DNA from: Allosphingosinicella sp.
GTDB lineage: Bacteria > Pseudomonadota > Alphaproteobacteria > Sphingomonadales > Sphingomonadaceae
Assembly: GCA_036402575.1 (NCBI GenBank)
Contig: DASWSP010000084.1
Span: 9,924 to 73,923 of the forward strand
Reading direction: 5' to 3'
DNA length: 64,000 bases
Below are positions 19,050-42,672 of the stretch, piece by piece (the stretch's first letter is position 1; every line of letters begins with the position of its first letter). The position numbers were made by a program, and so were the translations under genes. Below the pieces are notes generated by a model, which saw only the letters and a program-made list of their open reading frames with translations, ran no database searches and was not told the DNA's origin.

Positions 19050-19118
19050 GCAAGCATCCCCTGGCCGGTCGTCCGGCTCGTACGCCTCTATCTCTTCGAC
19101 TCAAGCCCGGAGTCAACC

Positions 19119-19142
19119 AAAACTGCACTACAGGCTAATTTT
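19119..19142. promoter_or_regulatory. regulon operator copy O5
   Basis: AAAACTGCACTACAGGCTAATTTT. It lies ~70 nt upstream of the ACAD ATG (19049) and overlaps the last codons and stop of the hydratase gene. The right half-site is weaker. Confidence 0.55.
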
Positions 19143-21154: not shown

Positions 21155-21156
21155 GG

Positions 21157-22158
21157 TCAGCCCAGCCGAACGACGAGCTTGCCGAGCCCCTCGCCGGTGA
21201 ACAAGGCGGAGAAGGCATCGAGGGCGCGGTCGATCCCTTCGTAGACGGTGTCGGCCTGGCTCAGCGTGCCCGCCCGGTGCCACTCGGTGACATCGGCCAG
21301 GAACCGGGGCTGGTGATGGAGGTGGTTGAGGACGATGAAGCCTTCGAGCCGCAGCTCCTTGACCACGGCCTGGGTGAGGTTGCGCGGCGCCGCCGGCGGC
21401 TCGGTGCTGTTATAGGCCGAGATCATCCCGCACAAAGCGAAGCGGGCGCGGCGGTTGGCGATGGCGAGCGCGGCCTGGAGATGGTCGCCGCCGACATTGT
21501 CGAAATAGACGTCGATCCCCTCGGGCGCGGCCCGCGCCAGCGCCTTGGTGAGGCTGGGCTCGGCCTTGTAGTCGATTACCTCGTCCACCCCGAGCCGCTC
21601 CTTGAGGAAGGCGGTCTTGTGCGCTCCGCCGGCGGCGCCGATCACCTTGTGCCCCTTGAGCTTCGCGATCTGGCAGACGATCGAGCCGACCCCGCCCGAA
21701 GCCGCCGAGACGAACACGACGTCGCCGGGCTTCAGCGCGGCGACGTGGAGCAGGCCGACATAAGCGGTGAGCCCGGTCATTCCGGCGAAGCCCAGATAGG
21801 CCTGCGGCGGAAGCGTCCGTTCCTTCTTCTCGAGCGCGGCGGCGGGCGCGTTGAACGCCTCGCGCCAGCCGAGCCGCGACCAGACCAGATCGCCCGGCGC
21901 GAAGCCGGGATCGTTCGAGGCGACCACCTCGCCGACCGCAGGCCCTTCCATCGCCTTGCCGAGCTCGAACGGCGGCACGTAGCTGCGCGCCTCGCTCATC
22001 CGGCCGCGCATCGCCGGGTCGACCGTCATCCACAGGTTGCGGACCTGGACCTCGCCCGGCCCCGGCTCCGGCAGATCGACCGTCGCGGCGCTGAAATCCC
22101 CGGCGACGGGCGCTCCGACCGGGCGGCGCTCGAGCCGGATTTCGCGTGAGACCACCAT
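21157..22158 (-). CDS. NADP-dependent MDR oxidoreductase (alkenal/enone reductase-like)
   Basis: Internal start MVVSREI at 22158. Rossmann motif AASGGVGSIVCQIAKLKG. Resembles YncB/PTGR1-type double-bond reductases. Confidence 0.8.
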   Translation of the reverse strand: MVVSREIRLERRPVGAPVAGDFSAATVDLPEPGPGEVQVRNLWMTVDPAMRGRMSEARSYVPPFELGKAMEGPAVGEVVASNDPGFAPGDLVWSRLGWREAFNAPAAALEKKERTLPPQAYLGFAGMTGLTAYVGLLHVAALKPGDVVFVSAASGGVGSIVCQIAKLKGHKVIGAAGGAHKTAFLKERLGVDEVIDYKAEPSLTKALARAAPEGIDVYFDNVGGDHLQAALAIANRRARFALCGMISAYNSTEPPAAPRNLTQAVVKELRLEGFIVLNHLHHQPRFLADVTEWHRAGTLSQADTVYEGIDRALDAFSALFTGEGLGKLVVRLG

Positions 22159-22159
22159 C

Positions 22160-23284
22160 TCAGTAACCGGCGAGCCGGCCGTAGCGCTCGCGATGGAAGG
22201 CGCTGTTGCCCCACGTCGCGTCCGCCGCCGCCGCGCGCTTGAGGTAGAGGCCGGCGTCATGCTCCTCGGTCATCCCGATACCGCCGTGCAACTGCACCAT
22301 CTCGCCGGCCACCAGCCGCAGCGTATCGCCGGCCAGCGCCTTGGCCAGCGATGCGAGCGCGGGAACGTCCTCCTGATCCTCGTCGATCGCCGCGAGCGCC
22401 GCCTCGACCGCCGAACGAGTCAGCTCAAGTTCGCCGAGCATCTTCACCGCGCGATGCTGAAGCGCCTGGAACGATCCGATCAGCTGGCCGAACTGGACCC
22501 GGGTCTTGAGGTAATCGAGCGTCGTCTCGAACGCCTGCGTGGCGCTGCCCAGCATCTCGGCGGCGAGACCCGCCCGCCCGCGGTCGAGGATGCGTTCCAG
22601 CAGCGCGCCGCCGCGGTCGATCTCGCCGAGCACCGCGTCGCCGTCGACATGCACCTCCGCGAAGAGAAGCGAGGCGGCGTCGCGGCAGTCGACCCGCCGC
22701 AGCGGCGTGCGCGACAGCCCTTGGGCGTCCGCGTCGACGAGGAAAAGGGTGATCCCGCTCCCGTCGGCGACGCGCGCCGCGACGATGAAGAGGTTGGCCG
22801 CGATCCCGTCCAGCACCGGCGCCTTGACGCCTTCGAGCACCCAGCCGTTGCCGTCGGACCGGGCGGCGAAGGCGATGTTGCCCGGATCGTGCCGCCCGCT
22901 TTCATCGACCGCGAGCCCGACGATGGCTTCGCCCGATGCGATCGCCGAAAGCCAGCGCGCCTGCTTCTCCTCGCTTCCCCCGAGCCTCAGCGCGGCGACC
23001 CCGACCAGGGCGCTGCCGAGCAGCGGCGAGGACACCAATGTGCGCCCGAGCTCCTCCAGGATGAGGCCCAGGCTGAAATGACCGAAGTCGGCGCCGCCAT
23101 GGGCTTCCGGGACGACGATCCCCGCCCAGCCCATCTCCACCATCTCGGCATAAAGCTGGGGGTCGTGGCGCAGGCCATTATGTCCCTCCGCCGCCTTTCG
23201 GAAAGCACTGACCGGCGCCCGGTGGCGCGCCCAGTTGGCGGCCATGTCCTTGAGCATGGCCTGCTCTTCGCTCAATACCGCCAT
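22160..23284 (-). CDS. acyl-CoA dehydrogenase family protein (probable subunit of a heteromeric ACAD)
   Basis: 374 aa with an ACAD fold. The C-terminal segment LHGGIGMTEEH lacks the YEG motif. Directly follows another ACAD gene. Confidence 0.8.
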   Translation of the reverse strand: MAVLSEEQAMLKDMAANWARHRAPVSAFRKAAEGHNGLRHDPQLYAEMVEMGWAGIVVPEAHGGADFGHFSLGLILEELGRTLVSSPLLGSALVGVAALRLGGSEEKQARWLSAIASGEAIVGLAVDESGRHDPGNIAFAARSDGNGWVLEGVKAPVLDGIAANLFIVAARVADGSGITLFLVDADAQGLSRTPLRRVDCRDAASLLFAEVHVDGDAVLGEIDRGGALLERILDRGRAGLAAEMLGSATQAFETTLDYLKTRVQFGQLIGSFQALQHRAVKMLGELELTRSAVEAALAAIDEDQEDVPALASLAKALAGDTLRLVAGEMVQLHGGIGMTEEHDAGLYLKRAAAADATWGNSAFHRERYGRLAGY

Positions 23285-23296
23285 CGCCGCACTCCG

Positions 23297-24493
23297 CTAT
23301 CTGGCCGGGGCGGGATCGGGCAGGTTCAGCACCCGTTTCGCCGCGATATTGTTCTGGATCTCGTAGCTGCCGCCGTAGATCGAATAGGCCTTGCTGTGCA
23401 GCCACTGGCGGGTCGCCTCCAGCTCGCCGGCGGCATAACCTTCGCCTTCCCAGCCGAGGCCGCGGTCGCCCAGTATCTCCACCACCAGCTCGTAGCGCGT
23501 CTGTCCGACGTCGGAGCCCAGATTCTTGATCACGGGCACGGTGCCGTCGCCGGCGCCCTGCGCCTTCGCCTCCGCCGCTTTGCGCTGAAGCGTCAGCGTG
23601 TAGGCGCGCGCCCTCATTTCGTGCTGGATCAGCCGGGTCCGCAGGTCGGCGTCGGCGATAAGCCCCCCTTCGTCGACACCGACCTGCGCCCGGGCGATCG
23701 GCAACAGGCTCGGGCCTTCCCCCCGGCCCTCGGAGAGACTGTCGCGCTCGAACTGGAGCAGCCGCTTGGCGACTCCCCAGCCCTCGTTGACCCGGCCGAC
23801 GAGATTCTCCTTCGGCACCTTCACGTCGTTCAGGAACATTTCGCAAAAATGGCTCGACCCGCTGATCAGCACGATCGGGCGGGTGTCGATGCCGGGCGAA
23901 TTCATGTCGATCAGCAGGAAGCTGATGCCGCCCTGCTTGCGCGAGGTGTCGGTGCGGACCAGCGCGAAGCACCATTCGGCATGGTTCGCGCCCGAGGTCC
24001 AGATCTTCTGGCCGGTGACCAGCCAATGATCGCCCATGTCGATGCACTTGGTCTGCAAGGCCGCGAGGTCCGATCCCGCTCCCGGCTCGGAAAAGCCCTG
24101 GCACCATCGCACCTCGCCGCGCGCGATCGGCGGCAGATGCCGGGCCTGCTGCTCGGGCGTGCCATATTCCATCAAGGTGGGTCCGAGCATCGTCAGGCCC
24201 GTCATCCGCATCGGGCTGAACGCGCCGATCCGGGCCATCTCCTCGTTGATGATCTTGACCCCGGCGGCATCGAGACCGGCGCCGCCGAACTCAACCGGCC
24301 AACCCGGCGCGCCCCAGCGCTTCTCGGCCAGGCGCGCGCGCCACAGCCGGAAATCGGGGTCGGCCTCCGCATAAGGCGCGTCGTTCTGGTACGGCACCGG
24401 GTTCTTGAAGGCGAGCGAGCGCGGGAAGTTCTCATCCATCCAGGCGCGGACGTTCGCCCGGAATTCCCCCTCCTGCGCGTCGCCTTCGGCCAT
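23297..24493 (-). CDS. acyl-CoA dehydrogenase family protein (probable subunit of a heteromeric ACAD)
   Basis: Internal start MAEGDAQ at 24493. Motif FSEPGAGSDLA. C-terminal IYGGSYEIQ replaces the YEG motif. Confidence 0.8.
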   Translation of the reverse strand: MAEGDAQEGEFRANVRAWMDENFPRSLAFKNPVPYQNDAPYAEADPDFRLWRARLAEKRWGAPGWPVEFGGAGLDAAGVKIINEEMARIGAFSPMRMTGLTMLGPTLMEYGTPEQQARHLPPIARGEVRWCQGFSEPGAGSDLAALQTKCIDMGDHWLVTGQKIWTSGANHAEWCFALVRTDTSRKQGGISFLLIDMNSPGIDTRPIVLISGSSHFCEMFLNDVKVPKENLVGRVNEGWGVAKRLLQFERDSLSEGRGEGPSLLPIARAQVGVDEGGLIADADLRTRLIQHEMRARAYTLTLQRKAAEAKAQGAGDGTVPVIKNLGSDVGQTRYELVVEILGDRGLGWEGEGYAAGELEATRQWLHSKAYSIYGGSYEIQNNIAAKRVLNLPDPAPAR

Positions 24494-24570
24494 CCTGGAA
24501 TCCCCCGCACCTGGTTTCGGCTCGCCCACGCCTGCCGAAGTGGGCCCCCATTCGTGCTCCGCAGCCGGTG

Positions 24571-24594
24571 AAAACTGCAACGTAGGCTACAATT
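24571..24594. promoter_or_regulatory. regulon operator copy O6
   Basis: AAAACTGCAACGTAGGCTACAATT, ~78 nt upstream of ACAD ATG 24493. A TTGACT hexamer (minus strand, 24613..24618) lies 18 nt upstream in the direction of transcription. Confidence 0.6.
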
Positions 24595-24624
24595 GGTCCC
24601 GGTCGGAGCGAAAGTCAACCGGAC

Positions 24625-24834
24625 TCATTCGTCCAATGCGAAGCCGATCTTGAGCATCACCTGATACCGATCCACCCGGTTGCCGGCGATGTGTCCGCGC
24701 AGCTCGGTGACTTCGAACCACCTGAGATTCCTCACCGTTTCGGCGGTGCGGGCAATCGCTGTCGAGATCGCTTTCTCGATGCTCTCATCCGAGGTTCCGA
24801 CGACCTCCACGACCTTGGCGACATGTTCGGACAT
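24625..24834 (-). CDS. dodecin family flavin-binding protein
   Basis: 69 aa, MSEHVAKVVEVVGTSDESIEKAI...LRWFEV...RGHI...YQVMLKIGF. Closely matches the bacterial dodecin pattern. Strong RBS GAGGAGAGAG. Confidence 0.8.
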   Translation of the reverse strand: MSEHVAKVVEVVGTSDESIEKAISTAIARTAETVRNLRWFEVTELRGHIAGNRVDRYQVMLKIGFALDE

Positions 24835-24870
24835 GGTTCTCTCTCCTCGTTGTGGATGTGGTTTCGCGGC

Positions 24871-25065
24871 TCAGTCGTCCTCGATCACCAGCGCGCGCTC
24901 GGGACATGATTTGGCGCCGCGCCAGGCCGTTCGCTCCTGGCCCTCCGGCACCGCGATGTCGCCCGGAAGGATGAAGCCGTCGTCGTCGAGCCTGAATATC
25001 TCCGGCGACTGGGCGGCGCAGCGGGCATGGCCCTGGCATTTCTCGTTCAGCACTTTGATCCGCAT
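24871..25065 (-). CDS. [3Fe-4S]-type ferredoxin (P450 partner type)
   Basis: 64 aa from internal start MRIKV. Cluster motif CQGHARC...CP (CxxHxxC(x)nCP). Confidence 0.8.
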   Translation of the reverse strand: MRIKVLNEKCQGHARCAAQSPEIFRLDDDGFILPGDIAVPEGQERTAWRGAKSCPERALVIEDD

Positions 25066-25075
25066 CGTCGCCTCC

Positions 25076-26281
25076 TCAGTTCCAGGCGAGTTCGAGATCC
25101 TGGATTCCGAACACATGGCCGCCATGGGTGAGCGGCGCGGTCCCTTCGCTGATCCTGAAGGTCGGTATCCGACGAAGCCATTCCTCGATCGCGATCACGA
25201 GCTCGCGCCGGGCGAGATGCGAGCCCAGGCAACGGTGCGGACCGTAAGCGAAGGCGACATGGCGATTGTCCTCGCGCCTGAGGTCGATGCGGTTGGGATC
25301 GGGAAACTCGTCGGGATCGCGATTGGCGACCATCGATGGACAGGACACCCGGTCCCCCGCCTTGATGAAGATGCCGTTCAATTCCGTATCGCGCGCCGCG
25401 ACTCGAGTCACCAGCACCGTCGAAAAGGCGCGCAGCAGCTCCTCCACCGCCAGCGGAATCCCCGCCGGGTCGGCCCGCAGTTGCGCCTGCGCCTCCTGGT
25501 GCACGGCAAGGTGGCGCAAGTCGAACCCGATCGCGGCCGCCACGGTGTCGAGCCCGGCGATGAACAGGAGCGCGCCCATTCCCACGGCCTCGCGGTCGTC
25601 GAGCTTGCGTCCGTCGACTTCCGCCTGGACGACGAAGGTCATGAAATCCTCGGCGGGCTCGCGGCGCCTGAGCTCGACCAGCTCGCGCATGAAGGCGATG
25701 ACGGTGCGGATCGCCTCGCCGCGCTCTTCCGGCGTGCCGTGCAATTGCTTGTCGGCCCAGCCGAGGAATTCCTGCCGGCGCGATTGCGGCAGGCCCAGGA
25801 ACTGAAGGAACACGCCCACCGCGAACGGAAAGGCGAAGTCCTCCATCACTTCGCACCGGCCCTTGCCTTTCAATCCTTCGATGAGCTCGACCGCACGCTC
25901 GCGATTGGCGGCCTCCATCGCCATCACGCGCTTGGGCGACAGCAACGGGTTGAGCAGCGACCGGTAGGCGCCGTGCGCCGGCGGATCGATCTCGAGCGGG
26001 ATGGTCGGAAGGTCCTCGCCGAGCGCCTTCTCGAACAGCTGCCGGCGGCTCGAGAAGGTGGTCGCGTCCTGAAGCACCCGCCGCTGGTCGGCGGCGCGCA
26101 CGATGACCCAGGTGCCGTGGCCGTCATAGCTGTTTTCCGGCGCGAAGAAGATCGGCGGCCCGTCGTGCAGCGAAGCCAGCGCGCCCTGCGGGTCGCCGCC
26201 GCGCGACGGCGGCATTCCCGGCGCGCTCCAATAGCTGAAATCGCGCACGAGCTCGGGCGGAACATGATCCGGGACCTTCAT
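25076..26281 (-). CDS. cytochrome P450
   Basis: Heme-thiolate loop FAYGPHRCLGSHLA, I-helix AGLDTVA, ExxR (EELLR). 401 aa. Confidence 0.9.
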   Translation of the reverse strand: MKVPDHVPPELVRDFSYWSAPGMPPSRGGDPQGALASLHDGPPIFFAPENSYDGHGTWVIVRAADQRRVLQDATTFSSRRQLFEKALGEDLPTIPLEIDPPAHGAYRSLLNPLLSPKRVMAMEAANRERAVELIEGLKGKGRCEVMEDFAFPFAVGVFLQFLGLPQSRRQEFLGWADKQLHGTPEERGEAIRTVIAFMRELVELRRREPAEDFMTFVVQAEVDGRKLDDREAVGMGALLFIAGLDTVAAAIGFDLRHLAVHQEAQAQLRADPAGIPLAVEELLRAFSTVLVTRVAARDTELNGIFIKAGDRVSCPSMVANRDPDEFPDPNRIDLRREDNRHVAFAYGPHRCLGSHLARRELVIAIEEWLRRIPTFRISEGTAPLTHGGHVFGIQDLELAWN

Positions 26282-26296
26282 TGCTCACTCCCGACC

Positions 26297-26320
26297 AATT
26301 TTGCACTGTGGACTACAATT
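26297..26320. promoter_or_regulatory. regulon operator copy O7
   Basis: AATTTTGCACTGTGGACTACAATT, 16 nt upstream of the P450 ATG. TTGACA (minus strand, 26338..26343) lies 17 nt upstream, so the operator starts at the predicted -10. Confidence 0.65.
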
Positions 26321-26323
26321 AAC

Positions 26324-26893
26324 TCAAGGGCGGAACCTGTCAACTTCGCCGGACGCGGCGGCAAGATCGTCGGGCGTGTCGACGTCCAGGGCAAGGCCAA
26401 ACCGGTCGACCGTCTCATGCGGCGCCCCCGCCGACGCCCGGTGCAAGGCGAAGCTTCCGGGCCCGAAGGCAAAGCGGAACGGCCGGGCGTCGGCAATGGC
26501 GAGCCCGTTGGTGCCGGTGCCGTGGCGATCGGGCGCGATCGCGCAGCCTGACCGCTCCGCGGCCTCGAGCAGGGCCGCGACGTCATCGGCGCCGAGATGC
26601 GGCAGATCGGCGTGCAGGATGGCGACGGGCGCCGCGCCCAGATCCCGGCGCGCCGCCTGAAGCTCCTCGTTGAGCCCTCTGCCTTCGTCCGGCCGCCAGT
26701 CTCCCGCGCAGCCATCCGGCAGGCGGTCGGACAGGATGATCAGCCGGACCCCCGGCACCTGCCCCACCATCCCGGCGACATGCCTGAACCAGCGCTCGCC
26801 GAGCTGCGCCCGCTCCTCATCGGTCAGCACATCCCTGAGGCGGGTCTTGCGCGAGCCTTCCTGCTTCAGCGGAACGATCACGGTCCAGTTCAT
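26324..26893 (-). CDS. cofC: CofC/FbiD-type guanylyltransferase (F420 biosynthesis)
   Basis: 189 aa with VIVPLK N-terminus and DRHGTGTNGL motif. Last gene of the F420 operon. ATGA overlap with cofD. Confidence 0.8.
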   Translation of the reverse strand: MNWTVIVPLKQEGSRKTRLRDVLTDEERAQLGERWFRHVAGMVGQVPGVRLIILSDRLPDGCAGDWRPDEGRGLNEELQAARRDLGAAPVAILHADLPHLGADDVAALLEAAERSGCAIAPDRHGTGTNGLAIADARPFRFAFGPGSFALHRASAGAPHETVDRFGLALDVDTPDDLAAASGEVDRFRP

Positions 26894-27822
26894 CGCAGGC
26901 TGTCGGCGAGCGCGAGCGCGGCGCGCGCCACCCGGACCCGATCGTCGAGGCTCTGCATCAAGGTGTCGGTCCGCCCCGAAGCGATGCCGAGGTCGACCGG
27001 CGGGTCGCGCTCGTCGACCAGCAGCCCGTCGATCGCGTCGCCATAATGGCGTGCGATCGCGGCCGCGTCGGACGGCACGCCGAGCTCCGCCATCAGCTTG
27101 CCGGTCGGACCTTTCACCGCGGTTCCGCCGACCAGCGGCGACACCGCGACGACGGGCGCCGGCGCGTCGCGCAGCGCCTCCCGGATGCCCGGCACCGCCA
27201 GGATGGGATCCACGCTCAGGAAGGGGTTCGACGGCGCGATCAGGATGGCTCGGTTGGCGGGGTTCCCGATCGCTTCGAGCACGCCGGGGGCCGGCGCGGA
27301 CTCCTCCACTCCGGCGAAGCGGATCGACCGCACGGCGGGTTCGCAGCGCAGCCCGACGAAGTAGCGCTGGAAGGACAGCTCGCCCTCTTGCGTGTCCAGC
27401 CGGGTCTCGATCGGCTCGTCACTCATCGGCAGGATGCGCGCCGCGATGCCCCAGGCGCCGGCGAAGTCGGCGGTGATCGCCGACAGGCTATCGCCCTGGC
27501 GGCGGCGCATCGACCGCAGCACATGGAGCGCGAGGTCGCCGTCGCCGAGCAGGAACCAGTCGGGACCGCCGAGCGAACGCAGCGCTTCCATGAAATTCCA
27601 GCTCTCGCCCTCGCGGCCCCATCCCTGCGCGGCGTTGGCCCGGCCGGAGAGCGTGTAGAGCAAGGTGTCGATATCGGGCGACACGTGCAGCCCGAGGTGC
27701 ACGAAATCGTCGCCGGTATTGACGATCGCGGTCACTTCGGAGGCGGGCATGGCGTGGATCAGGCCCAGCACCAGCTTGGCGCCGCCGACCCCGCCGGTGA
27801 GGACCGCAACGGGGCCGGTCAC
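26890..27822 (-). CDS. cofD: 2-phospho-L-lactate (or analogue) transferase CofD/FbiA
   Basis: LTGGVGGAKL P-loop-like motif, NTGDD, and WFLLGDGDLALH. Confidence 0.9.
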   Translation of the reverse strand: MTGPVAVLTGGVGGAKLVLGLIHAMPASEVTAIVNTGDDFVHLGLHVSPDIDTLLYTLSGRANAAQGWGREGESWNFMEALRSLGGPDWFLLGDGDLALHVLRSMRRRQGDSLSAITADFAGAWGIAARILPMSDEPIETRLDTQEGELSFQRYFVGLRCEPAVRSIRFAGVEESAPAPGVLEAIGNPANRAILIAPSNPFLSVDPILAVPGIREALRDAPAPVVAVSPLVGGTAVKGPTGKLMAELGVPSDAAAIARHYGDAIDGLLVDERDPPVDLGIASGRTDTLMQSLDDRVRVARAALALADSLR

Positions 27823-28574
27823 CGGAACAGATCCTCCTCGACCGGCCGCACCAGCGCCGAGGCGGGAGCGTCCGGCGCGCTCCAGTCAAGCCCGCGCACC
27901 AGGGCCGCAGGCACGCCCTCGGCCCCCTCGCCCGTGGCAAGGCCCGCCGCGCTGGCCACCATGTCGGCGAAGGCGACCTGCGTCACTTCGAGCAGCCGCC
28001 CGTCGCGGTCCCGCTCGCCGCGCCGATCGATCAGCGCGGGCAGCCCGCTCGCGCCGATCGCGACGTTGACCACCCCCATCCGCCACGGCCGCCCGAAGCT
28101 GTCGGAGATCACGATCGCGGGCGGCGCCGGCCATCGCCGGGCCAGGCCGGCGCGCAGCCGCTCCGCCGACGCGTCCGAATCCTCCGGCAAGAGCAGCGCC
28201 CGATCGCCCTCGCCCGAGCCGAGGTTCGAACGGTCGATGCCGGCATTGGCCATGACATGGCCGGTGCGATGGCGGGTGATGAGCAAATTGGGGGCGGTCC
28301 TCACCACCGCCGCCGATTCGTCCAGCACCAGCTCGACGAGCCGCGCGTCCTTGCCGGTCGCATCGGCGATCCGCTCCGCTTCCGCACCCGGCCGGACGGC
28401 GGCGAGGCTGACGAAACGCCCCTCCGCCTTCGACACTATCTTCTGAGTCACGACGAGCACGTCCCGTGCCATGGGCACCACACCCGCGGCAGCAACCGCG
28501 TCGGCGAGGATCGCGGCAAGATCGTCCCCCGGCAAAACCTCGGGAATGCCGGTCAGCGCGACGATCTCGATCAT
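27819..28574 (-). CDS. cofE: F420-0:gamma-glutamyl ligase CofE (single-domain)
   Basis: VVVTQKIVSKAEGR, ANAGID and SDSFGRPWR motifs. Only 251 aa, so there is no C-terminal nitroreductase-like domain. Confidence 0.85.
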   Translation of the reverse strand: MIEIVALTGIPEVLPGDDLAAILADAVAAAGVVPMARDVLVVTQKIVSKAEGRFVSLAAVRPGAEAERIADATGKDARLVELVLDESAAVVRTAPNLLITRHRTGHVMANAGIDRSNLGSGEGDRALLLPEDSDASAERLRAGLARRWPAPPAIVISDSFGRPWRMGVVNVAIGASGLPALIDRRGERDRDGRLLEVTQVAFADMVASAAGLATGEGAEGVPAALVRGLDWSAPDAPASALVRPVEEDLFR

Positions 28575-28583
28575 GAATCGGCC

Positions 28584-29258
28584 TCAGCTCGAAGGTGGGA
28601 TCAACTCGCCTGTGATCCGAATGCCCGCGCCGTCAACCTGATAGGTCTTGTTGAGGAAGATGAGGATCGAGGTCATCGCCTCCGCGGCCGCCGAATTGAC
28701 GAGCGCACCGCCATGCAGCCCGCGCAGCCCCGCCGCGTTCGCAATCTCCACCACCGCCTCCCGCGCCGCCTTGTCGTCGCCGAAGACGAGGACGTCGCAA
28801 CCGATGTCGGCATCGGTGATCAGCTTGTGCGCGGCGACATTGTGGAACCCGGAGACCACCGTCACGCCTTCCCCCAGGATCTGCTGGGCGCGCGCCGCGG
28901 CGCTTCCTTCGGCGGGGAGCTGCACCCGCATCACCTTGGGCGGCATGAGCGGCACGGTCGTGTCGACGACGATCTTGCCCGCGACATGCGGCGCGATCTC
29001 CCGAAGCGTCGCGTCCTGCGCCGCGAAGGGCACCGTGACGATGACGATGTCGGCGGCTTGCGCCGCATCGGCATTCGCCATGCCGCTCAGGCCGAAGCCG
29101 AGCTCGCGCGCAGCCGCCTCGGCGCTCTCGGCGGAGCGCGATCCGATCACCACCTTGCGCCCGGCCTTGGCCAGGCGCCGCGCGATCGCCGCCCCCAGCT
29201 TGCCGGTGCCGCCGATCACGCCGATCGTGGCGTCAGGCCGCCTGGACGCTTCGCTCAT
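28584..29258 (-). CDS. fno: NADPH-dependent F420 reductase (F420H2:NADP+ oxidoreductase)
   Basis: IGVIGGTGKLGAAIARRLAKAG Rossmann motif. 224 aa. AGGAGA RBS. The start overlaps the fbiC 3' end by 26 nt. Confidence 0.85.
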   Translation of the reverse strand: MSEASRRPDATIGVIGGTGKLGAAIARRLAKAGRKVVIGSRSAESAEAAARELGFGLSGMANADAAQAADIVIVTVPFAAQDATLREIAPHVAGKIVVDTTVPLMPPKVMRVQLPAEGSAAARAQQILGEGVTVVSGFHNVAAHKLITDADIGCDVLVFGDDKAAREAVVEIANAAGLRGLHGGALVNSAAAEAMTSILIFLNKTYQVDGAGIRITGELIPPSS

Positions 29259-31581
29259 TCTTTTCTCCTGGATCCTGGGCCACCGGCCGATAGAGGGTCG
29301 TACGCTGCCGCGCGAACCGGCCTGCCGCCGCGGCGATCGAGGCCATGCGCTCGGCGCTGCAGAGCTGGCCGTTGGCCCCGCCTGCCGCGCGCGTGATCGA
29401 TTCGTCCATCAAAATCCCGCCAAGGTCGTTCGCCCCGGCCCTCAGCGCCGCGGCCGCCCCGTCCGGACCGAGCTTGACCCAGCTTACCTGGATATTGGCC
29501 ACCAGCGGGTGCAGGACGAGCCGCGCGACCGCGTGCATCAGCAGCGCCTCGCGCGCGCTCGGTCCGGACCGCGCCGCGCCCTTGCGCCAGATCGGCGCCT
29601 CCATGTGCACGAACGGCAGCGGCACGAATTCGGTGAAGCCGCCGGTCTCCGCCTGCAGGTCCCGGATCGAGAGCAGATGCCGCGCCCAGTGGCCGTAATG
29701 GTCGATATGGCCGAACATGATCGTCGCCGTCGACCTCAGCCCCACCCGGTGCGCGGTGCGCATCACCTCGAGCCACTGCGACGTGTTCACCTTGTCGGGG
29801 CAGATCACCGCGCGCACCTCGTCGTCGAGGATTTCCGCGGCCGTGCCCGGCAGGCTCGCCAGTCCCGCGCGCTTGAGGCGCGACAGATAGTCGGCGAGCG
29901 GCAGCCCCAGTGTCGCCGCTCCGTGAGTCACCTCGAGCGGCGAGAAGGCGTGGATATGCACGCCCGGCGCCGCGGCGCGCACCGCCTCAAGCACCGCCAG
30001 GTAGAAGTCGCCGTCATAATCGGGGTGGATGCCGCCCTGCAGGCAGACCTCGGTCGCGCCCCGCGCCACCCCTTCCGCCGCGCGCCGGCCCACTTCGGCA
30101 AGGTCGAGCCTGTAGGCCGGCCCGCGGACCGCCTTCACGCTGCCCTTCGAGAAGGCGCAGAAGCCGCATTTGTAGAGGCAAATGTTGGTGTAGTTGATGT
30201 TGCGGTTGACGACGTAGCTCACGGCCTCCCCCGCCGCGCCCCGCCTCACCCGGTCCGCCGCGCCGGCGACCAGGGCTACATCCGGTCCGTCCGCTTCGAA
30301 CAGCGCGACGACGTCCGCCTCGCTCAGCCGTTCCCCGCCCGAGGCGCGGGCGACGATTGCCTCGATCGAGGGCGACCTTGCGGTCCGGCCCGACGGCAGA
30401 TGGACGGGCATGACCTCCGCCGTTCCAGGATGCCAGCCGTCGGTCACGGGCAGGCCGCGGGCGTCGACCGCGCGCCGAACCACCGGCACCAGCGCAGGAT
30501 CGAGCCAGCGCTCCGGCGCCTTTGCAAAGGCGGGCCCGATCGCGAGCCGCTCGCGCAGCACGCGTCCCGCTCCGGCAGTCGCCCGCTCGAGACCCGCGAG
30601 ATGCGGCCACGGCGCTTCCGGGTTCACATGGTCCGGAGTCACCGGCGACACGCCGCCCCAATCGTTGACCCCCGCCCGAAGCAGGTCGGCGAGCGCCTCG
30701 ATCTTCTGCAGGTTGGGCGGCGCCTGGATCGTCATCTCCGGCCCCAGCACGAGCCGGGCCGCGGCGATGGTCCAGAGATGCTCTTCGAGCGGCGGCTCCG
30801 GATGGTCCGCCATCCGAGTCCCCGGCTTGGCGCGGAAGTTCTGGACGATGACTTCCTGGACGTGGCCGTAGCGGCGGTGGAGCGCGCGGATTGCGAGCAG
30901 CGCCTCCACCCGCTCGCCGCGGGTCTCGCCGATGCCGATCAGCAGCCCGGTCGTGAACGGCACCCGCGCCCGCCCCGCGGCCTCGATCGCGGCCAGGCGC
31001 CGGGCCGGCAGCTTGTCGGGCGATCCGTGGTGCGGCCCGCCCGGCTGCGAGAGGCGCTCGGCGTAAGTCTCCAGCATCAGCCCCATCGACGCCGCCACCG
31101 GTCGCAGCGCGGCATAATCGGCATCGTCCATCAGACCGGGGTTGAGGTGCGGCAGCAGGCCGGTCTCGGCGAGCACCTCGGCCGCCATCTCGCGCAGGTA
31201 GGACAGGGTGGATTCGTGACCCAGCTCGGCGAGCGCCTCGCGCGCCGCGCCGTATCGAGCCTCCGGCCGGTCGCCGAGCGTGAACAGCGCCTCGCGGCAG
31301 CCGGCCGCCTTGCCGGCCCGGGCGATCGCCAGCACCTGGTCGCGCGTCAGATAGGGCACGGCATGGCGCGGAGTCGTCGCGAAGGTGCAATAGTGGCAGA
31401 CGTCGCGGCACAGCCGGGTGAGCGGAATGAACACCTTGCGCGAGTAGGTGACGAGCGCGCCGAAGCCGTCCAGAGTCAGCCGCTCGGCCGCCTCGACGAG
31501 ATCGGCCAGCGGCGCCTCCGCCAGCGCCGCGGCGACGTCGCCGGCCGCGGCCTCGTGCAGCGATTCGAGCCTGCCCTTCAT
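29233..31581 (-). CDS. fbiC: FO synthase, fused CofG/CofH (FbiC)
   Basis: Two radical-SAM CxxxCxxC motifs (CRDVCHYC and CLYKCGFC). ~780 aa. I prefer ATG at 31581 (MKGRL, AGGAAGG RBS) over the TTG at 31611 used by the track. Confidence 0.9.
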   Translation of the reverse strand: MKGRLESLHEAAAGDVAAALAEAPLADLVEAAERLTLDGFGALVTYSRKVFIPLTRLCRDVCHYCTFATTPRHAVPYLTRDQVLAIARAGKAAGCREALFTLGDRPEARYGAAREALAELGHESTLSYLREMAAEVLAETGLLPHLNPGLMDDADYAALRPVAASMGLMLETYAERLSQPGGPHHGSPDKLPARRLAAIEAAGRARVPFTTGLLIGIGETRGERVEALLAIRALHRRYGHVQEVIVQNFRAKPGTRMADHPEPPLEEHLWTIAAARLVLGPEMTIQAPPNLQKIEALADLLRAGVNDWGGVSPVTPDHVNPEAPWPHLAGLERATAGAGRVLRERLAIGPAFAKAPERWLDPALVPVVRRAVDARGLPVTDGWHPGTAEVMPVHLPSGRTARSPSIEAIVARASGGERLSEADVVALFEADGPDVALVAGAADRVRRGAAGEAVSYVVNRNINYTNICLYKCGFCAFSKGSVKAVRGPAYRLDLAEVGRRAAEGVARGATEVCLQGGIHPDYDGDFYLAVLEAVRAAAPGVHIHAFSPLEVTHGAATLGLPLADYLSRLKRAGLASLPGTAAEILDDEVRAVICPDKVNTSQWLEVMRTAHRVGLRSTATIMFGHIDHYGHWARHLLSIRDLQAETGGFTEFVPLPFVHMEAPIWRKGAARSGPSAREALLMHAVARLVLHPLVANIQVSWVKLGPDGAAAALRAGANDLGGILMDESITRAAGGANGQLCSAERMASIAAAAGRFARQRTTLYRPVAQDPGEKNERSVQAA

Positions 31582-31657
31582 CGCCTTCCTAGAATCCTCC
31601 CCCGGCGCCAACTGCGATTCGTGCCCCGATCATCTTCGCCAATATGCGGCGCGCGTC

Positions 31658-31681
31658 AATTTAGCACTGCAGTGTAGAATT
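31658..31681. promoter_or_regulatory. regulon operator copy O8
   Basis: AATTTAGCACTGCAGTGTAGAATT, ~77 nt upstream of the fbiC ATG. Confidence 0.6.
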
Positions 31682-31745
31682 CGGCGGCAAAAGCCCCGGA
31701 ATCCCGTGCCGCCCATATTCGCGATGTCGCGCGAAAGGACAATAG

Positions 31746-31769
31746 ATTTCTAACCTGCAATGCAAAATT
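31746..31769. promoter_or_regulatory. regulon operator copy O9
   Basis: Reverse complement reads AATTTTGCATTGCAGGTTAGAAAT. It lies ~99 nt upstream of the fused CoA-transferase ATG (31868). Confidence 0.55.
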
Positions 31770-31867
31770 GCTTGCCTTTTGCCGCCGCCTCCGCTTTGCT
31801 TGACCCGGCAAATTGCCGCGCCTGGCGAGAATCGCCCGGAAGACGGCATCATACATTAGGAGTGAGG

Positions 31868-34258
31868 ATGGCTGGACCGCTGGATCATCTGGTCGTCGTC
31901 GAGGCGTCGCGGGTCATGCCGGGGGCGATCGCCGGCATGCTGCTCGCCGATCATGGCGCGGACGTGATCAAGGCGGAGCCGCATGGCGGCGCCTTCTTCG
32001 CCCACGACCTGACACGCAAGTCCTGGGACCGCGGCAAGCGCAGCGTCGAGCTCGACTATGACGATCCGGGCGAGCGCGCGAAGCTCGCCGCCCTCATCGC
32101 GACCGCCGACATCTTCATCCATTCGCTGGAGGACGAGGAGGCGGCCCGGCTGGGCCTCGATCGCGACACGCTCGCCCGCGACAATCCCGGACTGATCGTC
32201 TGCGCGCTCCAGGCCTATGGCAAGGACACGCCCTTCGCCGGCCGTCCCTATGGGGAGTCGCTGGCGGCCGCCCTGCTCGGGACGATGGTCGACAAGAGCA
32301 GCTCGTTCCGGCCCGGCCCCATCTATCTCGGCCACCCCGCCCTCCATTATGGCCAGGCCTTCCTGGCGGTGATCGGGCTCCTGGCGGCGATCAAGGCGCG
32401 GCGCGAAACCGGCCAGGGCCAATTGGTCGAGGCATCCTTGCTCGATTCGATGCTCGCCCAGTCCCCGATGAACAATTGGTGGCAGGAGCAGGGCATTTCC
32501 TACATCAAGAAGGGCGACAGCGGCGCGATCGACCGGTTCGGCAAGGTCCGCCTCGTCACCGCCATGTTCGAATGCGGCGACGGCCTTTTCCTGCAGATCC
32601 ACACCGGCGGCTCCGGCGCCTTCAAGGTCGCGATGGACATCCTCGGCTTCGGCGACCGCATCAAGGCGATCAAGGGCCCGGAAATGGCGGTGCCGCTCAG
32701 CGACGACGAATATCAGATCGCGCGCGTCGAAATCTTCGAGGCCTTCAAGCAGAAGCCGCGGGAGGAGTGGATCCGGCTGTTCCGCGAAGCCGACGTCGCC
32801 GCTCTGCCGGTGCTCGAGCCCGCCGAAGTGCTCCTCGACGACCAGGTCGAGTTCGTCGGGCAGCGGGTCGAGCTCGCGGACCCGGACTTCGGCACGATCC
32901 ACCAGGCTGCGCCGGCCGTTCGCTTCATCGCCGCGCCGCCCGCCATGCCCGAGCCTGCGCCGGCCGTCGGGGCCCACAATGGCGAGCTCGATTCGCTGCT
33001 GGCCCGGCCAAAACCAGCGCCGGCAAACGCCGGCGGCAGATCGGTGAGCCACGCTCTCGAGGGCCTGCGCATTCTGGATTTCAGCTCCTTCTTCGCCTGC
33101 GGCTATGCGGGGCGGCTGATGTCCGACCTCGGCGCCGACGTGATCAAGGTCGAGACCCCGGAGGGCGACCAGATGCGGCCCCTCCCCGACGTGTTCGACG
33201 CCGCCCAGCGCGGCAAGCGCGACATCGTTCTCAACCTCAAGACGCCTGAAGGGCTGGCTGCCGCGCATCGGCTGATCGAGGGCGCGGACGTGATGATGCA
33301 CAACCTGCGGCCCGGCAAGGCGGACAAGCTCGGCATCGGCTACGAGGCGATGGCGAAGCTCAACCCGCGCCTCGTCTACGCCTATCTGCCGGGCTACGGC
33401 TCGAAGGGACCCAAGTCGCTGCTCAAGAGCTTCGCGCCCCTGGTCAGCGGCTGGACGGGCCTGCTCTACGAGGGCGCCGGCGAGGGCAACCCGCCGACCC
33501 GCTCGGTATTCGGCAACGAGGATTACAATAACGGCTTCCTCGGCGCCGCCGCCGTGCTGATGGCGATCGAGAATCGCTACCGCACCGGCCGAGGCGACTA
33601 TGTCGAATGCCCGCAGCTCCATTCGAGCCTGTGGACGACGTCCGAGCATTTCCTCGATGCCGACCGGAAGGTCGTCTACGGCCTCAGGCTCGACCAGGCG
33701 CAGACCGGCTTCGACGCGCTCGACCGGATCTACCGCACCAGCGACGGATGGCTGTGCATCTGCTGCCGGCAGGACGAGCGTTTCGCCGCGCTGGCCAAAG
33801 CGATCGGGCGGCCGGAGATCGCGAGCGATGCGAGGTTCGCGACTCCGCGCGACCGCTCGGCGAACGATGCCGCGCTCGGCGAGCTGCTTGCGCCTTTCTT
33901 CGCAGGCCTCAGCTCGGCGGAAGCCTTCGAACGGCTCGACGCGGCGGGGGCACCCTGCGAAATCGTGCGCGAGAAATCGTGGGTGCAGGACGTGTTCTTC
34001 GAGGACTGGGCGACGCGGTCAAACCGCGTGTTCGAGGAGTTCGGGTCGATGTACGGCCACATCCGCGAGCTTGGCCTGATGAACCGCCTGAGCGCGACCC
34101 CCGGCGTCCGCAAGGGACCGGCGCCGCGCCTCGGCGAGCATAGCCGCGAGATCCTGGCCGAGGCCGGCTATTCGCCCGGAGAGATCGCTGACCTGGTGGA
34201 GCGCAGGATCGCCGTGACGGCCGACGCCAAGGAACGCGCCGGGCTGGTCTCGGCCTAA
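31868..34258 (+). CDS. tandem-fused double family III CoA-transferase-like protein (796 aa)
   Basis: Two copies of the family III N-terminal signature: VVVEASRVMPGAIAGMLLADHGADVIKAEP, and LRILDFSSFFACGYAGRLMSDLGADVIKVETP about 430 aa later. ATG at 31868 with AGGAGTGAGG RBS. Confidence 0.8.
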   Translation: MAGPLDHLVVVEASRVMPGAIAGMLLADHGADVIKAEPHGGAFFAHDLTRKSWDRGKRSVELDYDDPGERAKLAALIATADIFIHSLEDEEAARLGLDRDTLARDNPGLIVCALQAYGKDTPFAGRPYGESLAAALLGTMVDKSSSFRPGPIYLGHPALHYGQAFLAVIGLLAAIKARRETGQGQLVEASLLDSMLAQSPMNNWWQEQGISYIKKGDSGAIDRFGKVRLVTAMFECGDGLFLQIHTGGSGAFKVAMDILGFGDRIKAIKGPEMAVPLSDDEYQIARVEIFEAFKQKPREEWIRLFREADVAALPVLEPAEVLLDDQVEFVGQRVELADPDFGTIHQAAPAVRFIAAPPAMPEPAPAVGAHNGELDSLLARPKPAPANAGGRSVSHALEGLRILDFSSFFACGYAGRLMSDLGADVIKVETPEGDQMRPLPDVFDAAQRGKRDIVLNLKTPEGLAAAHRLIEGADVMMHNLRPGKADKLGIGYEAMAKLNPRLVYAYLPGYGSKGPKSLLKSFAPLVSGWTGLLYEGAGEGNPPTRSVFGNEDYNNGFLGAAAVLMAIENRYRTGRGDYVECPQLHSSLWTTSEHFLDADRKVVYGLRLDQAQTGFDALDRIYRTSDGWLCICCRQDERFAALAKAIGRPEIASDARFATPRDRSANDAALGELLAPFFAGLSSAEAFERLDAAGAPCEIVREKSWVQDVFFEDWATRSNRVFEEFGSMYGHIRELGLMNRLSATPGVRKGPAPRLGEHSREILAEAGYSPGEIADLVERRIAVTADAKERAGLVSA

Positions 34259-34286
34259 GCGCGACGAAGAAAGCAGGGGAACAGCG

Positions 34287-35297
34287 GTGGAACTCAACCT
34301 TCGATACGACATGAACAGCCCGCCGTTCGGCGCGCCGCATCCGATACTCTATCGGACCGCGATCGAGCAGGCGACGTGGGCGGACAAGCTCGGCTTCAAC
34401 CAGGTCTATCTGGCCGAGCATCACGGCGCGGAGCACGGCTACTGCCCCTCGTCGATGGTGCAGGCCGCTTCGATCTTCGGGCCCACCAAGCAGATCCTCG
34501 TCCACCTCTCGGCGCTGGTCGTGACGATGCACGATCCCATCCGCCTCGCCGAGGATCTGGCGGTGCTCGACAACATCTCCAACGGCCGCATCGTGTTCAC
34601 CGCCGGCATGGGCTACCGACCGCATGAATTCGAGATGTTCGGCAAGGACATCACCAAGCGGCTCGCGATCATGAACGAGACGATGGCGGTGCTGAAACAG
34701 GCATGGACCGGCGAGCCGTTCGAATATCAGGGGCGAACGGTGCGCGTGTCGCCCAGGCCGGTGCGGCCCGGCGGGCCCAAGATCTACATGGGCGGCTCGA
34801 CCGACAAGTCGGCGATCCGCGCCGCCAAGGCGGGCTATCAGTATTTTCCCGGCCATCCCGACCTGTTCGAGATCTACAAGGAGGAGCGCGCCAAGGCCGG
34901 CTTCCCCCCGCCCGAGCCGCTGCTCAAATCGGGCGCGAGCTTCCTCTACGTCAGCGAGGACCCGGACCGCGACTGGCCGCAGCTCGCCCCCCACATCGCC
35001 TACGCGACCAATACCTATGCGGAGTGGGCGAAGGAGCGTGGCGAGGGCGCGACCCGCTACCAGGCGTCCGCGTCCGACGAGGAGCTTCGCCACCTGCCCA
35101 ACATCAAGATCCTGACGCCCGATCAGTGCTTCGAATATGCGATGGATCTCGGCAACGAGTCGCAGCTGACCTTCCACGCGCTGCTCGGCGGCATCGATCC
35201 CGACCTTTCGTGGAAGAGCCTGCGGCTGTTCGAGAAATCGGTGCTGCCGCGACTGGTGGCGGCGGGGATGGTCAAAGGACCCGCACGCGCGGCATGA
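34287..35297 (+). CDS. luciferase-like (LLM class) flavin/F420-dependent oxidoreductase
   Basis: 336 aa with a TIM-barrel LLM pattern (FNQVYLAEHH, LDNISNGRIVFTAGMGY). GTG start at 34287 with AGGGGA RBS. Confidence 0.8.
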   Translation: MELNLRYDMNSPPFGAPHPILYRTAIEQATWADKLGFNQVYLAEHHGAEHGYCPSSMVQAASIFGPTKQILVHLSALVVTMHDPIRLAEDLAVLDNISNGRIVFTAGMGYRPHEFEMFGKDITKRLAIMNETMAVLKQAWTGEPFEYQGRTVRVSPRPVRPGGPKIYMGGSTDKSAIRAAKAGYQYFPGHPDLFEIYKEERAKAGFPPPEPLLKSGASFLYVSEDPDRDWPQLAPHIAYATNTYAEWAKERGEGATRYQASASDEELRHLPNIKILTPDQCFEYAMDLGNESQLTFHALLGGIDPDLSWKSLRLFEKSVLPRLVAAGMVKGPARAA

Positions 35298-35309
35298 GGG
35301 AGAGCTTGT

Positions 35310-35963
35310 ATGACTGACGACGATATCTACGTGCCGCTGCGCCGCCAGGCCCTGCGCGCCATGGTGGCGCTGCCGCTGGGGCTCGCCGCCGGCGCCGCAG
35401 CCGCGCAGGCGCCCGCGCGCCGCGCGCCCGCCGGCAACCTCGCGACGCGCCTCGACATACTCGAGTCGAAGGACCGGATCACGGAGGTGCTCTACGCCTA
35501 TGCGCGGAGCAACGATCGGCTGGACGAGGCGCTGCTGCGCTCCTGCTTCTGGCCGGAATCGACCCACAAGCATGGCGGGTTCAGCGGCAAGTCGAGCGAC
35601 TTCGCCGGCTTCGCGATCAAGATCATCGGCGGACTTCGCTACGCAGCCCACCACATCTCGAACGTCTCGGTGGAAGTGCGCGGCAATCGCGCTTTCTCGG
35701 AATGCTATTATTTCGCCCATCACCGCCGCGCCGCCAAGGAAGGCGGCGGCGAGGAGGACGCTTTCTTCGAGGGCCGCTATCTCGACCGCCACGAGCGGCG
35801 CGGCGGCGAATGGCGGATCATCCAGCGCCGCGGCCTCAGCGACTTCTCGACCGTGGTCCCGGCCAAGACGCTCCATGCCTCATGGCCGGAGGGGCAGCAC
35901 AGCCTGCGCTACCCGGACGACGATTATTACGCGATGCGCCGCGCCTTCGAAGCCGGGCGCTGA
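35310..35963 (+). CDS. SnoaL-like / NTF2-fold protein with Tat-like signal
   Basis: N-terminal LRRQALRAMVALPLGLAAGAAAAQA, then an NTF2/SnoaL_4-like core (ITEVLYAYARSNDRLD, WRIIQRR). Confidence 0.6.
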   Translation: MTDDDIYVPLRRQALRAMVALPLGLAAGAAAAQAPARRAPAGNLATRLDILESKDRITEVLYAYARSNDRLDEALLRSCFWPESTHKHGGFSGKSSDFAGFAIKIIGGLRYAAHHISNVSVEVRGNRAFSECYYFAHHRRAAKEGGGEEDAFFEGRYLDRHERRGGEWRIIQRRGLSDFSTVVPAKTLHASWPEGQHSLRYPDDDYYAMRRAFEAGR

Positions 35964-42657: not shown

Positions 42658-42672
42658 TGCCGCCGGTCAGCC

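Follow-up and report, generated by a model that had tools for sequence, protein, structure and literature searches.

A complete coenzyme F420 operon embedded in, and probably co-regulated with, an acyl-CoA catabolic gene cluster of Allosphingosinicella sp.

The window analysed here is a 64,000-nucleotide stretch of DNA from Allosphingosinicella sp. (GenBank assembly GCA_036402575.1, contig DASWSP010000084.1, forward-strand positions 9,924 to 73,923; G+C ∼69%), and the feature under study is a five-gene coenzyme F420 operon, fbiC-fno-cofE-cofD-cofC, carried on its reverse strand. All five encoded proteins score above curated NCBIfam equivalog cutoffs. The first gene, fbiC (29233-31581), encodes a fused CofG/CofH FO synthase that matches NF006687 ('bifunctional FO biosynthesis protein CofGH') at 1133 bits (cutoff 1018), with both domains present (TIGR03550, 490 bits; TIGR03551, 537 bits) and a CxxxCxxC motif in each radical-SAM half, at residues 58 and 468. 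The longest open reading frame runs from a TTG at 31611 (29233-31611); the ATG at 31581, which gives a protein of 782 aa, is the likely start, and this form is present on identical metagenome contigs. It is followed by fno, also called npdG (28584-29258), for an F420H2:NADP+ oxidoreductase (TIGR01915, 184.9 bits, cutoff 149.8) with an N-terminal NADP Rossmann domain (PF03807, 81 bits), by cofE (27819-28574), for F420-0:gamma-glutamyl ligase (TIGR01916, 256 bits, cutoff 181), by cofD (26890-27822), for 2-phospho-L-lactate transferase (TIGR01819, 304 bits, cutoff 257), and by cofC (26324-26893), for a guanylyltransferase (TIGR03552, 128.5 bits, cutoff 105). Pfam assigns the five proteins to CofC, CofD, F420_ligase, F420_oxidored and Radical_SAM (two stretches) plus CofH_C. 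The genes are tightly packed: the start of fno overlaps the end of fbiC by 26 nt (29233-29258), and overlaps of 4 nt join cofD to cofE (GTGA, 27819-27822) and cofC to cofD (ATGA, 26890-26893). The initial annotation had described a complete operon, a fused FO synthase with two radical-SAM motifs and overlaps of 4, 4 and 26 nt, and each of these descriptions is borne out by the family thresholds, residues and positions given above. One qualification applies to completeness, in that CofE is the short 251-aa form without the C-terminal dehydro-F420-0 reductase domain of FbiB; the FbiB-type model NF009810 matches its N-terminal half only.

This is a genuine F420 biosynthesis-plus-recharging operon and an ordinary member of the proteobacterial F420 operons, such as those of Oligotropha carboxidovorans and Paracoccus denitrificans (Ney et al. 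2017) and the 3PG-F420 cluster of Paraburkholderia rhizoxinica (Braga et al. 2019), as reviewed in PMC8498797, with which it shares the fused FbiC, the short CofE, CofC, CofD and Fno as the F420-reducing enzyme. For those operons the literature gives neither a regulatory nor a pathway context (PMC8498797). Here, by contrast, the F420 operon follows an operator that about a dozen catabolic operons share, and such operons flank it on both sides.

The spacers on both sides of the F420 operon hold related AT-rich elements, which gave the first clue to the shared motif, a 24-nt palindrome of about AAAACTGCAC-N4-GTGCAGTTTT. A symmetrised weight matrix, built from the window sites themselves and therefore self-trained, with outside DNA as the control for specificity, scores exactly 13 sites in the window at 24 bits or more and leaves the range from 14 to 24 bits empty. 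These sites span 3.6-52.4 kb, and each of the 13 is intergenic, with the leading gene of an operon beginning 11-150 nt further on, in most cases after ∼11-24 nt. In outside DNA, hits of at least 20 bits number one in 1.446 Mb (80 F420 loci of other genomes) and none in 158 kb of other F420 or luciferase-like monooxygenase contexts, whereas 360 kb of loci with orthologues of the cluster yields 62. A separate mismatch scan recovers seven sites with at most six mismatches to the palindrome, against 0.48 expected from shuffles.

Three of the sites bracket the F420 operon. The second-best site in the window, O8 (31658-31681; 34.9 bits), lies 77 nt upstream of the fbiC ATG and, read towards fbiC, is AATTCTACACTGCAGTGCTAAATT. 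On the other side, O7 (26297-26320; 29.3 bits) sits in the 42-nt gap between the stop codon of cofC and the start of a cytochrome P450 gene. The third, O9 (31746-31769; 30.2 bits), precedes by 98 nt the ATG at 31868 of CoAT2x, a double-domain family III CoA-transferase of the racemase fold (31868-34258, forward strand; PF02515 twice), which is divergent from fbiC and whose true start (MAGPLDHLVVV) was set by comparison with the related loci L088 and L089 (related loci are given by L numbers throughout). CoAT2x is the first gene of a conserved operon that continues with a luciferase-like (LLM) oxidoreductase (34287-35297, forward strand) and a SnoaL_4/NTF2-like protein (35310-35963, forward strand). 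The matrix and its outside controls thus uphold the earlier placement of O8 before the F420 operon, with O7 (P450) and O9 (CoA-transferase/LLM) on its flanks. Read towards the downstream gene, O7, O8 and O9 belong to an asymmetric subtype, AATTnTAnnCnnnAGTGCAAAATTG, in which the promoter-proximal half is well conserved. More broadly, two operator subtypes can be distinguished in the window, a near-symmetric one, CTGCAC-N4-GTGCAG (for example at 14251 and 44812), and the asymmetric one of O5-O9, in which only the promoter-proximal half AGTGCAAAATTG is retained. The asymmetry is conserved across species and may mean that the sites differ in affinity or overlap the -10 region.

Both the gene arrangement and the operators are conserved in relatives. 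An identical Fno is encoded on soil-metagenome contigs, and one contig of 15.5 kb (L001) has the same layout and the same operators. The nearest FbiC proteins, from Sphingomonas species and metagenomes, are 78-81% identical, which places the organism in the Sphingomonadaceae. With CoAT2x on one side and fbiC-fno-cofE-cofD-cofC diverging from it on the other, followed by genes for the P450, a ferredoxin, two acyl-CoA dehydrogenases (ACADs), an alcohol dehydrogenase, a CoA-transferase and a MaoC hydratase, the order is kept in three lineages: the window together with L001, the P0122 contig, whose FbiC is 81% identical to that of the window and whose gene order was compared, and L118, a second species with an FbiC 79% identical. 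L118 retains O5, O6, O7, O8 and O9 at orthologous positions. Its O8 is identical to that of the window in 21 of 24 bases and stands 26 nt before the fbiC start, a distance similar to that between most operators of the regulon and their own genes. When the fbiC/CoA-transferase spacers of the window and L118 are aligned, the two operators stand out as conserved islands and the rest has diverged. A site equivalent to O9, of the same asymmetric form, precedes the orthologous CoA-transferase gene in 15 loci (L088, L089, L090, L092, L093, L097, L099, L101, L105, L107, L108, L112, L114, L118 and L119), and operators upstream of the genes for CoAT2x, enoyl-CoA hydratase (ECH), pyrroloquinoline quinone (PQQ)-dependent alcohol dehydrogenase and a TonB-dependent receptor are kept in L089-L119.

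Two further placements of F420 genes are seen within this cluster. In L087, L088, L100 and L104, fbiC, cofE, cofD and cofC, without fno, follow the genes for an SCPx-thiolase, a DUF35 protein and an SGL lactonase in the same direction; in loci of the L088 type fbiC begins ∼10-25 nt after SGL, and the F420 genes are convergent with CoAT2x-LLM-SnoaL. The lineage represented by L088 (4301-9009), L104 and L087 has ∼62% G+C, and its F420 genes are appended to the SCPx-thiolase/DUF35/SGL-lactonase operon. In L114, from a metagenome-assembled genome (MAG) with an LLM 82% identical to that of the window, fbiC follows another TetR gene and is divergent from a string of genes for an APH-type kinase, a short-chain dehydrogenase/reductase (SDR), an ACAD, a major facilitator superfamily (MFS) transporter, an acyl-CoA synthetase (ACS), CoAT2x and LLM; the FbiC of this contig is not among the top 120 homologues listed. 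Because F420 genes occur in the same cluster in three arrangements and three lineages, both co-regulation and a functional tie appear well supported, and conserved arrangement, conserved operators and recurrent placements together argue well for a coupling of the F420 operon to the regulon. The gene order fbiC-fno-cofE-cofD-cofC itself is common in sphingomonads (L005, L008, L011, L013-L015, L019, L020), and most such loci are without this cluster and its motif. A search of a plasmid collection found no close relative of the locus, only fbiC at ∼75% nucleotide identity on Sphingobium and Novosphingobium megaplasmids, and no cultured strain with the exact arrangement of the window was identified.

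The best candidate for the repressor of the regulon is likely to be a TetR-family regulator (3633-4358, reverse strand; PF00440), which has weak similarity to KstR and CurR. In at least 11 loci (L089, L090, L092, L093, L097, L099, L101, L105, L108, L112, L119) its orthologues (58-65% identical) are syntenic with ECH, flavin-reductase and CoA-transferase/LLM genes, between which copies of the motif lie. Many loci, including one on a Sphingobium yanoikuyae chromosome, read TetR, motif, ECH, flavin reductase, motif, CoAT2x, LLM and SnoaL. A Crp-like regulator (54350-55096) was also considered as the operator-binding protein on account of the 5-N4-5 geometry; it is less likely since, unlike TetR, it is not syntenic in any related locus.

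We propose that the F420 operon has been recruited, in this Sphingomonas-like lineage, into a ∼50-kb multi-operon catabolic regulon tied together by the 24-nt palindromic operator, to which the TetR protein (3633-4358) would most likely bind. A pathway inducer would release the repressor, and the cell would then make F420, and reduce it with NADPH through Fno, at the same time as it makes the catabolic enzymes. Repressor binding, co-induction and a catalytic role of F420 in the pathway are predictions. It is fairly probable that the shared operator co-regulates the F420 operon with the rest of the regulon, and recruitment into the operator-linked regulon, taken as a whole, is the best explanation and one that we favour with somewhat less assurance. 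The earlier proposal that the operon is embedded in, and apparently co-regulated with, a catabolic regulon therefore stands as regards embedding and the shared operator, given the 21/24 identity of O8 in L118 and the three arrangements; as regards co-induction it keeps the standing of a prediction.

Several observations weigh against recruitment into the regulon. F420 genes are missing from the 10 kb around most orthologous clusters (L089, L090, L092-L094, L097-L099, L101, L105, L108, L112, L119). The LLM belongs with an orthologue cluster, 78% identical, of 253 members that are mostly from S. yanoikuyae and lie in the same operon; no S. yanoikuyae FbiC is among the top 120 matches obtained with either query, the window FbiC or one from Sphingobium, and the sphingomonad FbiC clusters among the matches listed are all small. 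S. yanoikuyae thus appears to lack fbiC, and this, together with the F420-less clusters, implies that the core pathway does not need F420. The short CofE leaves the reduction step for dehydro-F420-0 derived from phosphoenolpyruvate (PEP) unaccounted for: a dehydro-F420-0 reductase is needed if CofC uses PEP (PMC8498797), and would be dispensable if the substrate of CofC is 2-phospholactate or 3-phosphoglycerate; no nitroreductase family member was matched among the window proteins scanned with Pfam and NCBIfam. No sigma-70-like promoter to which O8 could be related was recognised in 19000-36200. Moreover, O8 and O9 lie 88 bp apart in one 286-bp divergent spacer, and O8 could in principle act on the CoA-transferase promoter alone. 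Finally, the annotated open reading frames of the window include no gene of the FDOR/PNPOx type, and their only LLM is ambiguous. With regard to other signals, terminator-like matches are no more frequent than in shuffles, and an Rfam gathering scan of the whole window found nothing, hence no riboswitch before fbiC.

Whether F420 has a role in the pathway at all seems to us evenly balanced. In the F420-bearing lineages it must add something: it may provide an alternative or extra reductive step, serve a client that has gone unrecognised, or serve one that lies outside the window. The client first suggested by the initial annotation as the obvious one was the adjacent LLM (34287-35297), which would be F420H2-dependent and act on a CoA-thioester intermediate, with the operon supplying reduced F420 through Fno; such a substrate is suggested by the position of the LLM gene in one operon with the double CoA-transferase. 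Its best NCBIfam match is the F420-linked TIGR03619, and its closest relatives among the LLMs of other proteobacterial F420 loci, of ∼26-32% identity and with the same SEHHF-type motif, stand beside F420 genes in L048, L059, L079, L083, L028 and L017, where they reach 121-163 bits with this model; L048 and L059 have the order fbiC, CoA-transferase, LLM. The F420 operon abuts CoAT2x-LLM-SnoaL in two of the three arrangements, and F420 use has arisen more than once within the fold class, including inside FMN-type LLM clades; cofactor choice in these folds is hard to read from sequence (PMC8518648). A sequence fingerprint separating F420- from FMN-dependent LLMs is given neither in PMC6279831 nor in PMC8518648.

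Other observations speak against F420 dependence. The TIGR03619 score of the LLM, 98.4 bits, is far below the cutoff of 166.9 and almost equalled by two FMN families that are likewise below cutoff (TIGR04027, 90.7 bits, cutoff 412.9; TIGR04020, 88.8 bits, cutoff 244.5), other F420-LLM models give at most 62 bits, and TIGR03559, the family of Rv3520c, gives 27 bits against a cutoff of 335. Among solved structures, the closest are those of luciferase-type FMN enzymes, Enhygromyxa LuxA (8cbb, 8.6e-22) and a poly(acrylic acid) monooxygenase (8k74, 6e-19), whereas F420 enzyme structures match only at 7e-6 to 2e-4. In most relatives (L089, L090, L097, L101, L105, L107, L108, L119) a PF01613 flavin reductase gene lies directly upstream of CoAT2x-LLM, and the corresponding reductase of the window (2070-2717, reverse strand) is likely to be the supplier of FMNH2 for the LLM. 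In these respects the LLM resembles the two-component FMNH2-dependent monooxygenases (LuxA-type, SsuD/SsuE and the type II Baeyer-Villiger diketocamphane monooxygenases), and the esterase and SGL-type lactonase of the regulon would fit the ester or lactone products of such enzymes. It differs from the curated FMN LLMs in falling under every FMN-LLM cutoff and in that its wider relatives at F420 loci lean to TIGR03619. Taken with the indirect evidence of the S. yanoikuyae orthologues, these comparisons make the LLM more likely an FMNH2-dependent two-component monooxygenase than an F420 enzyme; its status as obvious client is lost, and we regard F420 dependence as unlikely.

A relative of the LLM lies outside the Proteobacteria, on plasmid pRZP2 of Rhodococcus sp. 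ZPP (NZ_CP058639.1, 333172-362176; L111). This homologue is 47.5% identical and stands in a strikingly similar cluster, with a CaiB-type transferase, paired ACADs, a thiolase, ECH, NTF2, a P450, a zinc-dependent alcohol dehydrogenase, an AMP-ligase, an APH-type kinase and MaoC, which suggests that the same type of pathway exists in Actinobacteria, the classic F420-producing phylum. No PF01613 reductase is nearby, a point in favour of F420 use by the LLM of the window.

An equally improbable alternative is that F420H2 serves an enzyme of the pathway whose F420 dependence cannot be recognised, be it the PF01613 protein (2070-2717), an acyl-CoA-level reductase or a client of the same regulon beyond the 64-kb window. 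PF01613-type reductases such as PheA2 and TTHA0961 fall in a split beta-barrel clade in which the use of F420, FMN and FAD is interspersed and unpredictable from sequence (PMC8518648), the flavin-reductase gene is under O1, canonical FDORs are missing from the window, and P. rhizoxinica offers the precedent of an F420 producer without recognisable F420 enzymes (PMC8498797). This proposal argues by exclusion, however, and orthologues of the flavin reductase (58-66% identity) are also found in the apparently F420-less S. yanoikuyae cluster; a search of the unannotated window gaps for FDOR/PNPOx-type genes returned only a c-type cytochrome and antisense shadow reading frames, and in the lineages compared no gene emerged whose presence follows that of the F420 genes. 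A bolder version, which we put forward tentatively and consider rather doubtful, is that F420 is an inducible, pathway-dedicated cofactor in some sphingomonads, with the whole operon under one catabolic repressor in at least three independent arrangements, serving an unrecognised F420H2-dependent enzyme that carries out a step in the degradation of a CoA thioester resembling a lipid, a terpenoid or a steroid side chain. Candidates for this enzyme would be the divergent LLM subfamily shared with Rhodococcus, the PF01613 split-barrel protein or an acyl-CoA-level reductase.

The least probable account is that the F420 genes are a mobile module carried as a passenger in a rearrangement-prone island, with O8 serving as a second CoA-transferase operator, the fbiC promoter unregulated and F420 made for enzymes elsewhere: FbiC is sporadic in sphingomonads (clusters of 1-3 members, often megaplasmid-borne), gene order in the cluster is highly shuffled among lineages, O8 shares its spacer with O9, two motif copies precede the CoA-transferase gene in some fbiC-less relatives (for example L092 and L093), and a clear F420 client is missing from the window, but O8 is retained in L118 at a distance from the fbiC start codon typical of the regulon, the short gap after SGL in the L088 lineage leaves no room for an independent promoter, the three differing placements all fall within one cluster, and the arrangement is kept across FbiC identities of 79-81%.

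Recruitment of the F420 operon into a catabolic regulon can be compared with known systems. Like the actinobacterial KstR/KstR2 cholesterol regulons, the window has a TetR-type regulator (here a candidate) and a palindromic operator repeated before many operons, together with paired ACADs, MaoC hydratases, an SCPx-type thiolase with DUF35, a P450 and an LLM. It differs in its operator sequence, and the ring-degrading genes KstD, KshAB and HsaA-D were not seen in the window. We take the cholesterol cluster of M. tuberculosis to carry a predicted F420-dependent LLM, Rv3520c, beside DUF35 and the Ltp3/Ltp4 thiolases; unlike Rv3520c, the LLM of the window falls outside TIGR03559. A further difference from the actinobacterial KstR regulons is that the regulon of the window includes the cofactor biosynthesis genes themselves, and we know of no actinobacterial precedent for cofactor biosynthesis genes inside such a regulon.

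The initial annotation had also noted that the role of F420 in Proteobacteria is poorly defined, in agreement with a 2021 review, according to which no F420-dependent enzyme had been studied in bacteria outside Actinobacteria and which lists the reason why Proteobacteria make F420 among the unanswered questions (PMC8498797). What appears to be new is that F420 biosynthesis and recharging genes have come under the operator of a single catabolic regulon more than once and in differing arrangements; our literature searches found no published report of F420 biosynthesis genes under a catabolic-regulon operator. The locus makes the F420 question an experimental one: its operator is defined, a repressor can be nominated, the operons presumably under joint control are known, and the same cluster exists in relatives both with F420 genes and without them. 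If F420 were indeed dedicated to the pathway, alphaproteobacterial F420 would gain its first defined physiological function together with its first client enzyme.

The remaining operators delimit a large acyl-CoA-centred cluster, as judged by Pfam and NCBIfam scans of the window, with a core of beta-oxidation-type genes for thiolases, ACADs, enoyl-CoA hydratases, family III CoA-transferases of the racemase fold, a MaoC hydratase and a CurA-like enone reductase. O1 (3606-3629) lies between the TetR gene, whose end it closely follows, and the operon formed by ECH (2728-3588) and the flavin reductase, which starts 18 nt further on; it has equivalents in relatives such as L089 (position 5861). O2 (5986-6009), upstream of the acyl-CoA synthetase gene, is recovered by both the matrix and the mismatch scan, and O3 (10438-10461) is located between the divergent APH and thiolase genes, with an equivalent at position 1226 of L114. 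O4 (14251-14274; 36.1 bits) is nearest to a perfect palindrome, CTGCAC-TACG-GTGCAG. O5 (19119-19142), upstream of an ACAD gene (17901-19049), and O6 (24571-24594), upstream of the ACAD pair, correspond to positions 14663 and 9194 of L118, in which the counterpart of O7 is at 7671 (30.5 bits). Further sites precede the operon of two PQQ alcohol dehydrogenases, FadB, SCPx-thiolase, DUF35 and SGL (44812-44835; 33.1 bits), the gene for the TonB-dependent receptor (50744-50767 and 50779-50802, a pair conserved in L092, L093 and L094) and a carboxylesterase gene (52369-52392, found by the matrix and by the mismatch scan).

Directly downstream of cofC, on the same strand, lie the genes for the P450 (25076-26281), ferredoxin (24871-25065) and dodecin (24625-24834), and the order cofC, P450, ferredoxin is conserved in L118 and the P0122 contig. 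Dodecin, a flavin-storage protein (NF043052, 105.7 bits), is encoded in the window, L001, L002 and the P0122 contig, but neither in L118 nor in any of the F420-less relatives that were compared. Convergent with CoAT2x-LLM-SnoaL are the genes for FadB, SCPx-thiolase, DUF35 and the SGL lactonase, preceded by those for the two PQQ alcohol dehydrogenases, which are quinohemoproteins.

With respect to the substrate, the gene content points to a lipid-, terpenoid- or steroid-side-chain-like compound handled as CoA thioesters, for which the earlier label 'lipid-type' seems fair. In the region 40582-52392 the operator also stands before genes for the two PQQ alcohol dehydrogenases, a formylglycine-type sulfatase, the 1032-aa TonB-dependent receptor (two tandem operators) and the type-B carboxylesterase, which suggests that the cell imports its natural substrate across the outer membrane in the form of an ester or a sulfate conjugate. 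Under O2 and O3 the window carries a reverse-strand module (4427-7300 and 7373-10430) of ACS (4427-5965), MFS, ACAD (7373-8623), SDR (8620-9350) and APH kinase (9354-10430) genes. It resembles the 4-hydroxyacid/levulinate (lva) module of Pseudomonas putida, which comprises the kinase LvaA, the ACAD-like LvaC, the SDR LvaD and the ligase LvaE; unlike the lva system, this set is only one sub-module of the regulon in the window. A match to the lva-like module adjoins fbiC in L114 and the LLM homologue on the Rhodococcus plasmid pRZP2.

F420 operons of other sphingomonads are also found in catabolic surroundings. On plasmid pSA2 of N. resinovorum, fbiC-npdG-cofC and a TIGR03619 LLM gene stand beside genes for a TonB-dependent receptor, a CaiB-type transferase, MaoC, an ACAD and a Rieske oxygenase; in Sphingobium sp. 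TomTYG65 fbiC is co-directional with genes for a hydratase, a lyase and a CoA-transferase; the F420 operon follows a Rieske dioxygenase operon in L117 and is next to ACAD and Rieske genes in L121. In L120 (3773-10813) the genes for a TonB-dependent receptor and an LLM are followed by fbiC, an SDR gene, fno, cofE, cofD and cofC, with P450 genes nearby. These loci suggest that the sphingomonad F420 operon is a sporadic accessory module repeatedly embedded in catabolic clusters of the Rieske dioxygenase, P450/LLM and acyl-CoA kinds, and our literature searches found no mention of such repeated embedding. L120, which comes from a sphingomonad MAG, is a candidate for a different F420-dependent pathway: its LLM gene abuts fbiC with a shared base at 4774, the SDR gene separates fbiC from fno, and a second LLM gene and an old yellow enzyme (OYE) gene are nearby.

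Two small genes in the window complete the picture of the cluster. A small secreted c-type cytochrome with a CVTCH motif is encoded at ∼16316-16700 (reverse strand), between thiolase and CoA-transferase genes, where it was missed by the length and GC3 filters; a possible role for it is to accept electrons from the PQQ dehydrogenases. A short open reading frame at 52555-52700 (forward strand; MISYPVRAIPGDEGTALITFPDVPEALASGENEEEAISRAQSVLESR), in the gap upstream of an MFS gene, resembles a fragment of a HicB-type antitoxin.

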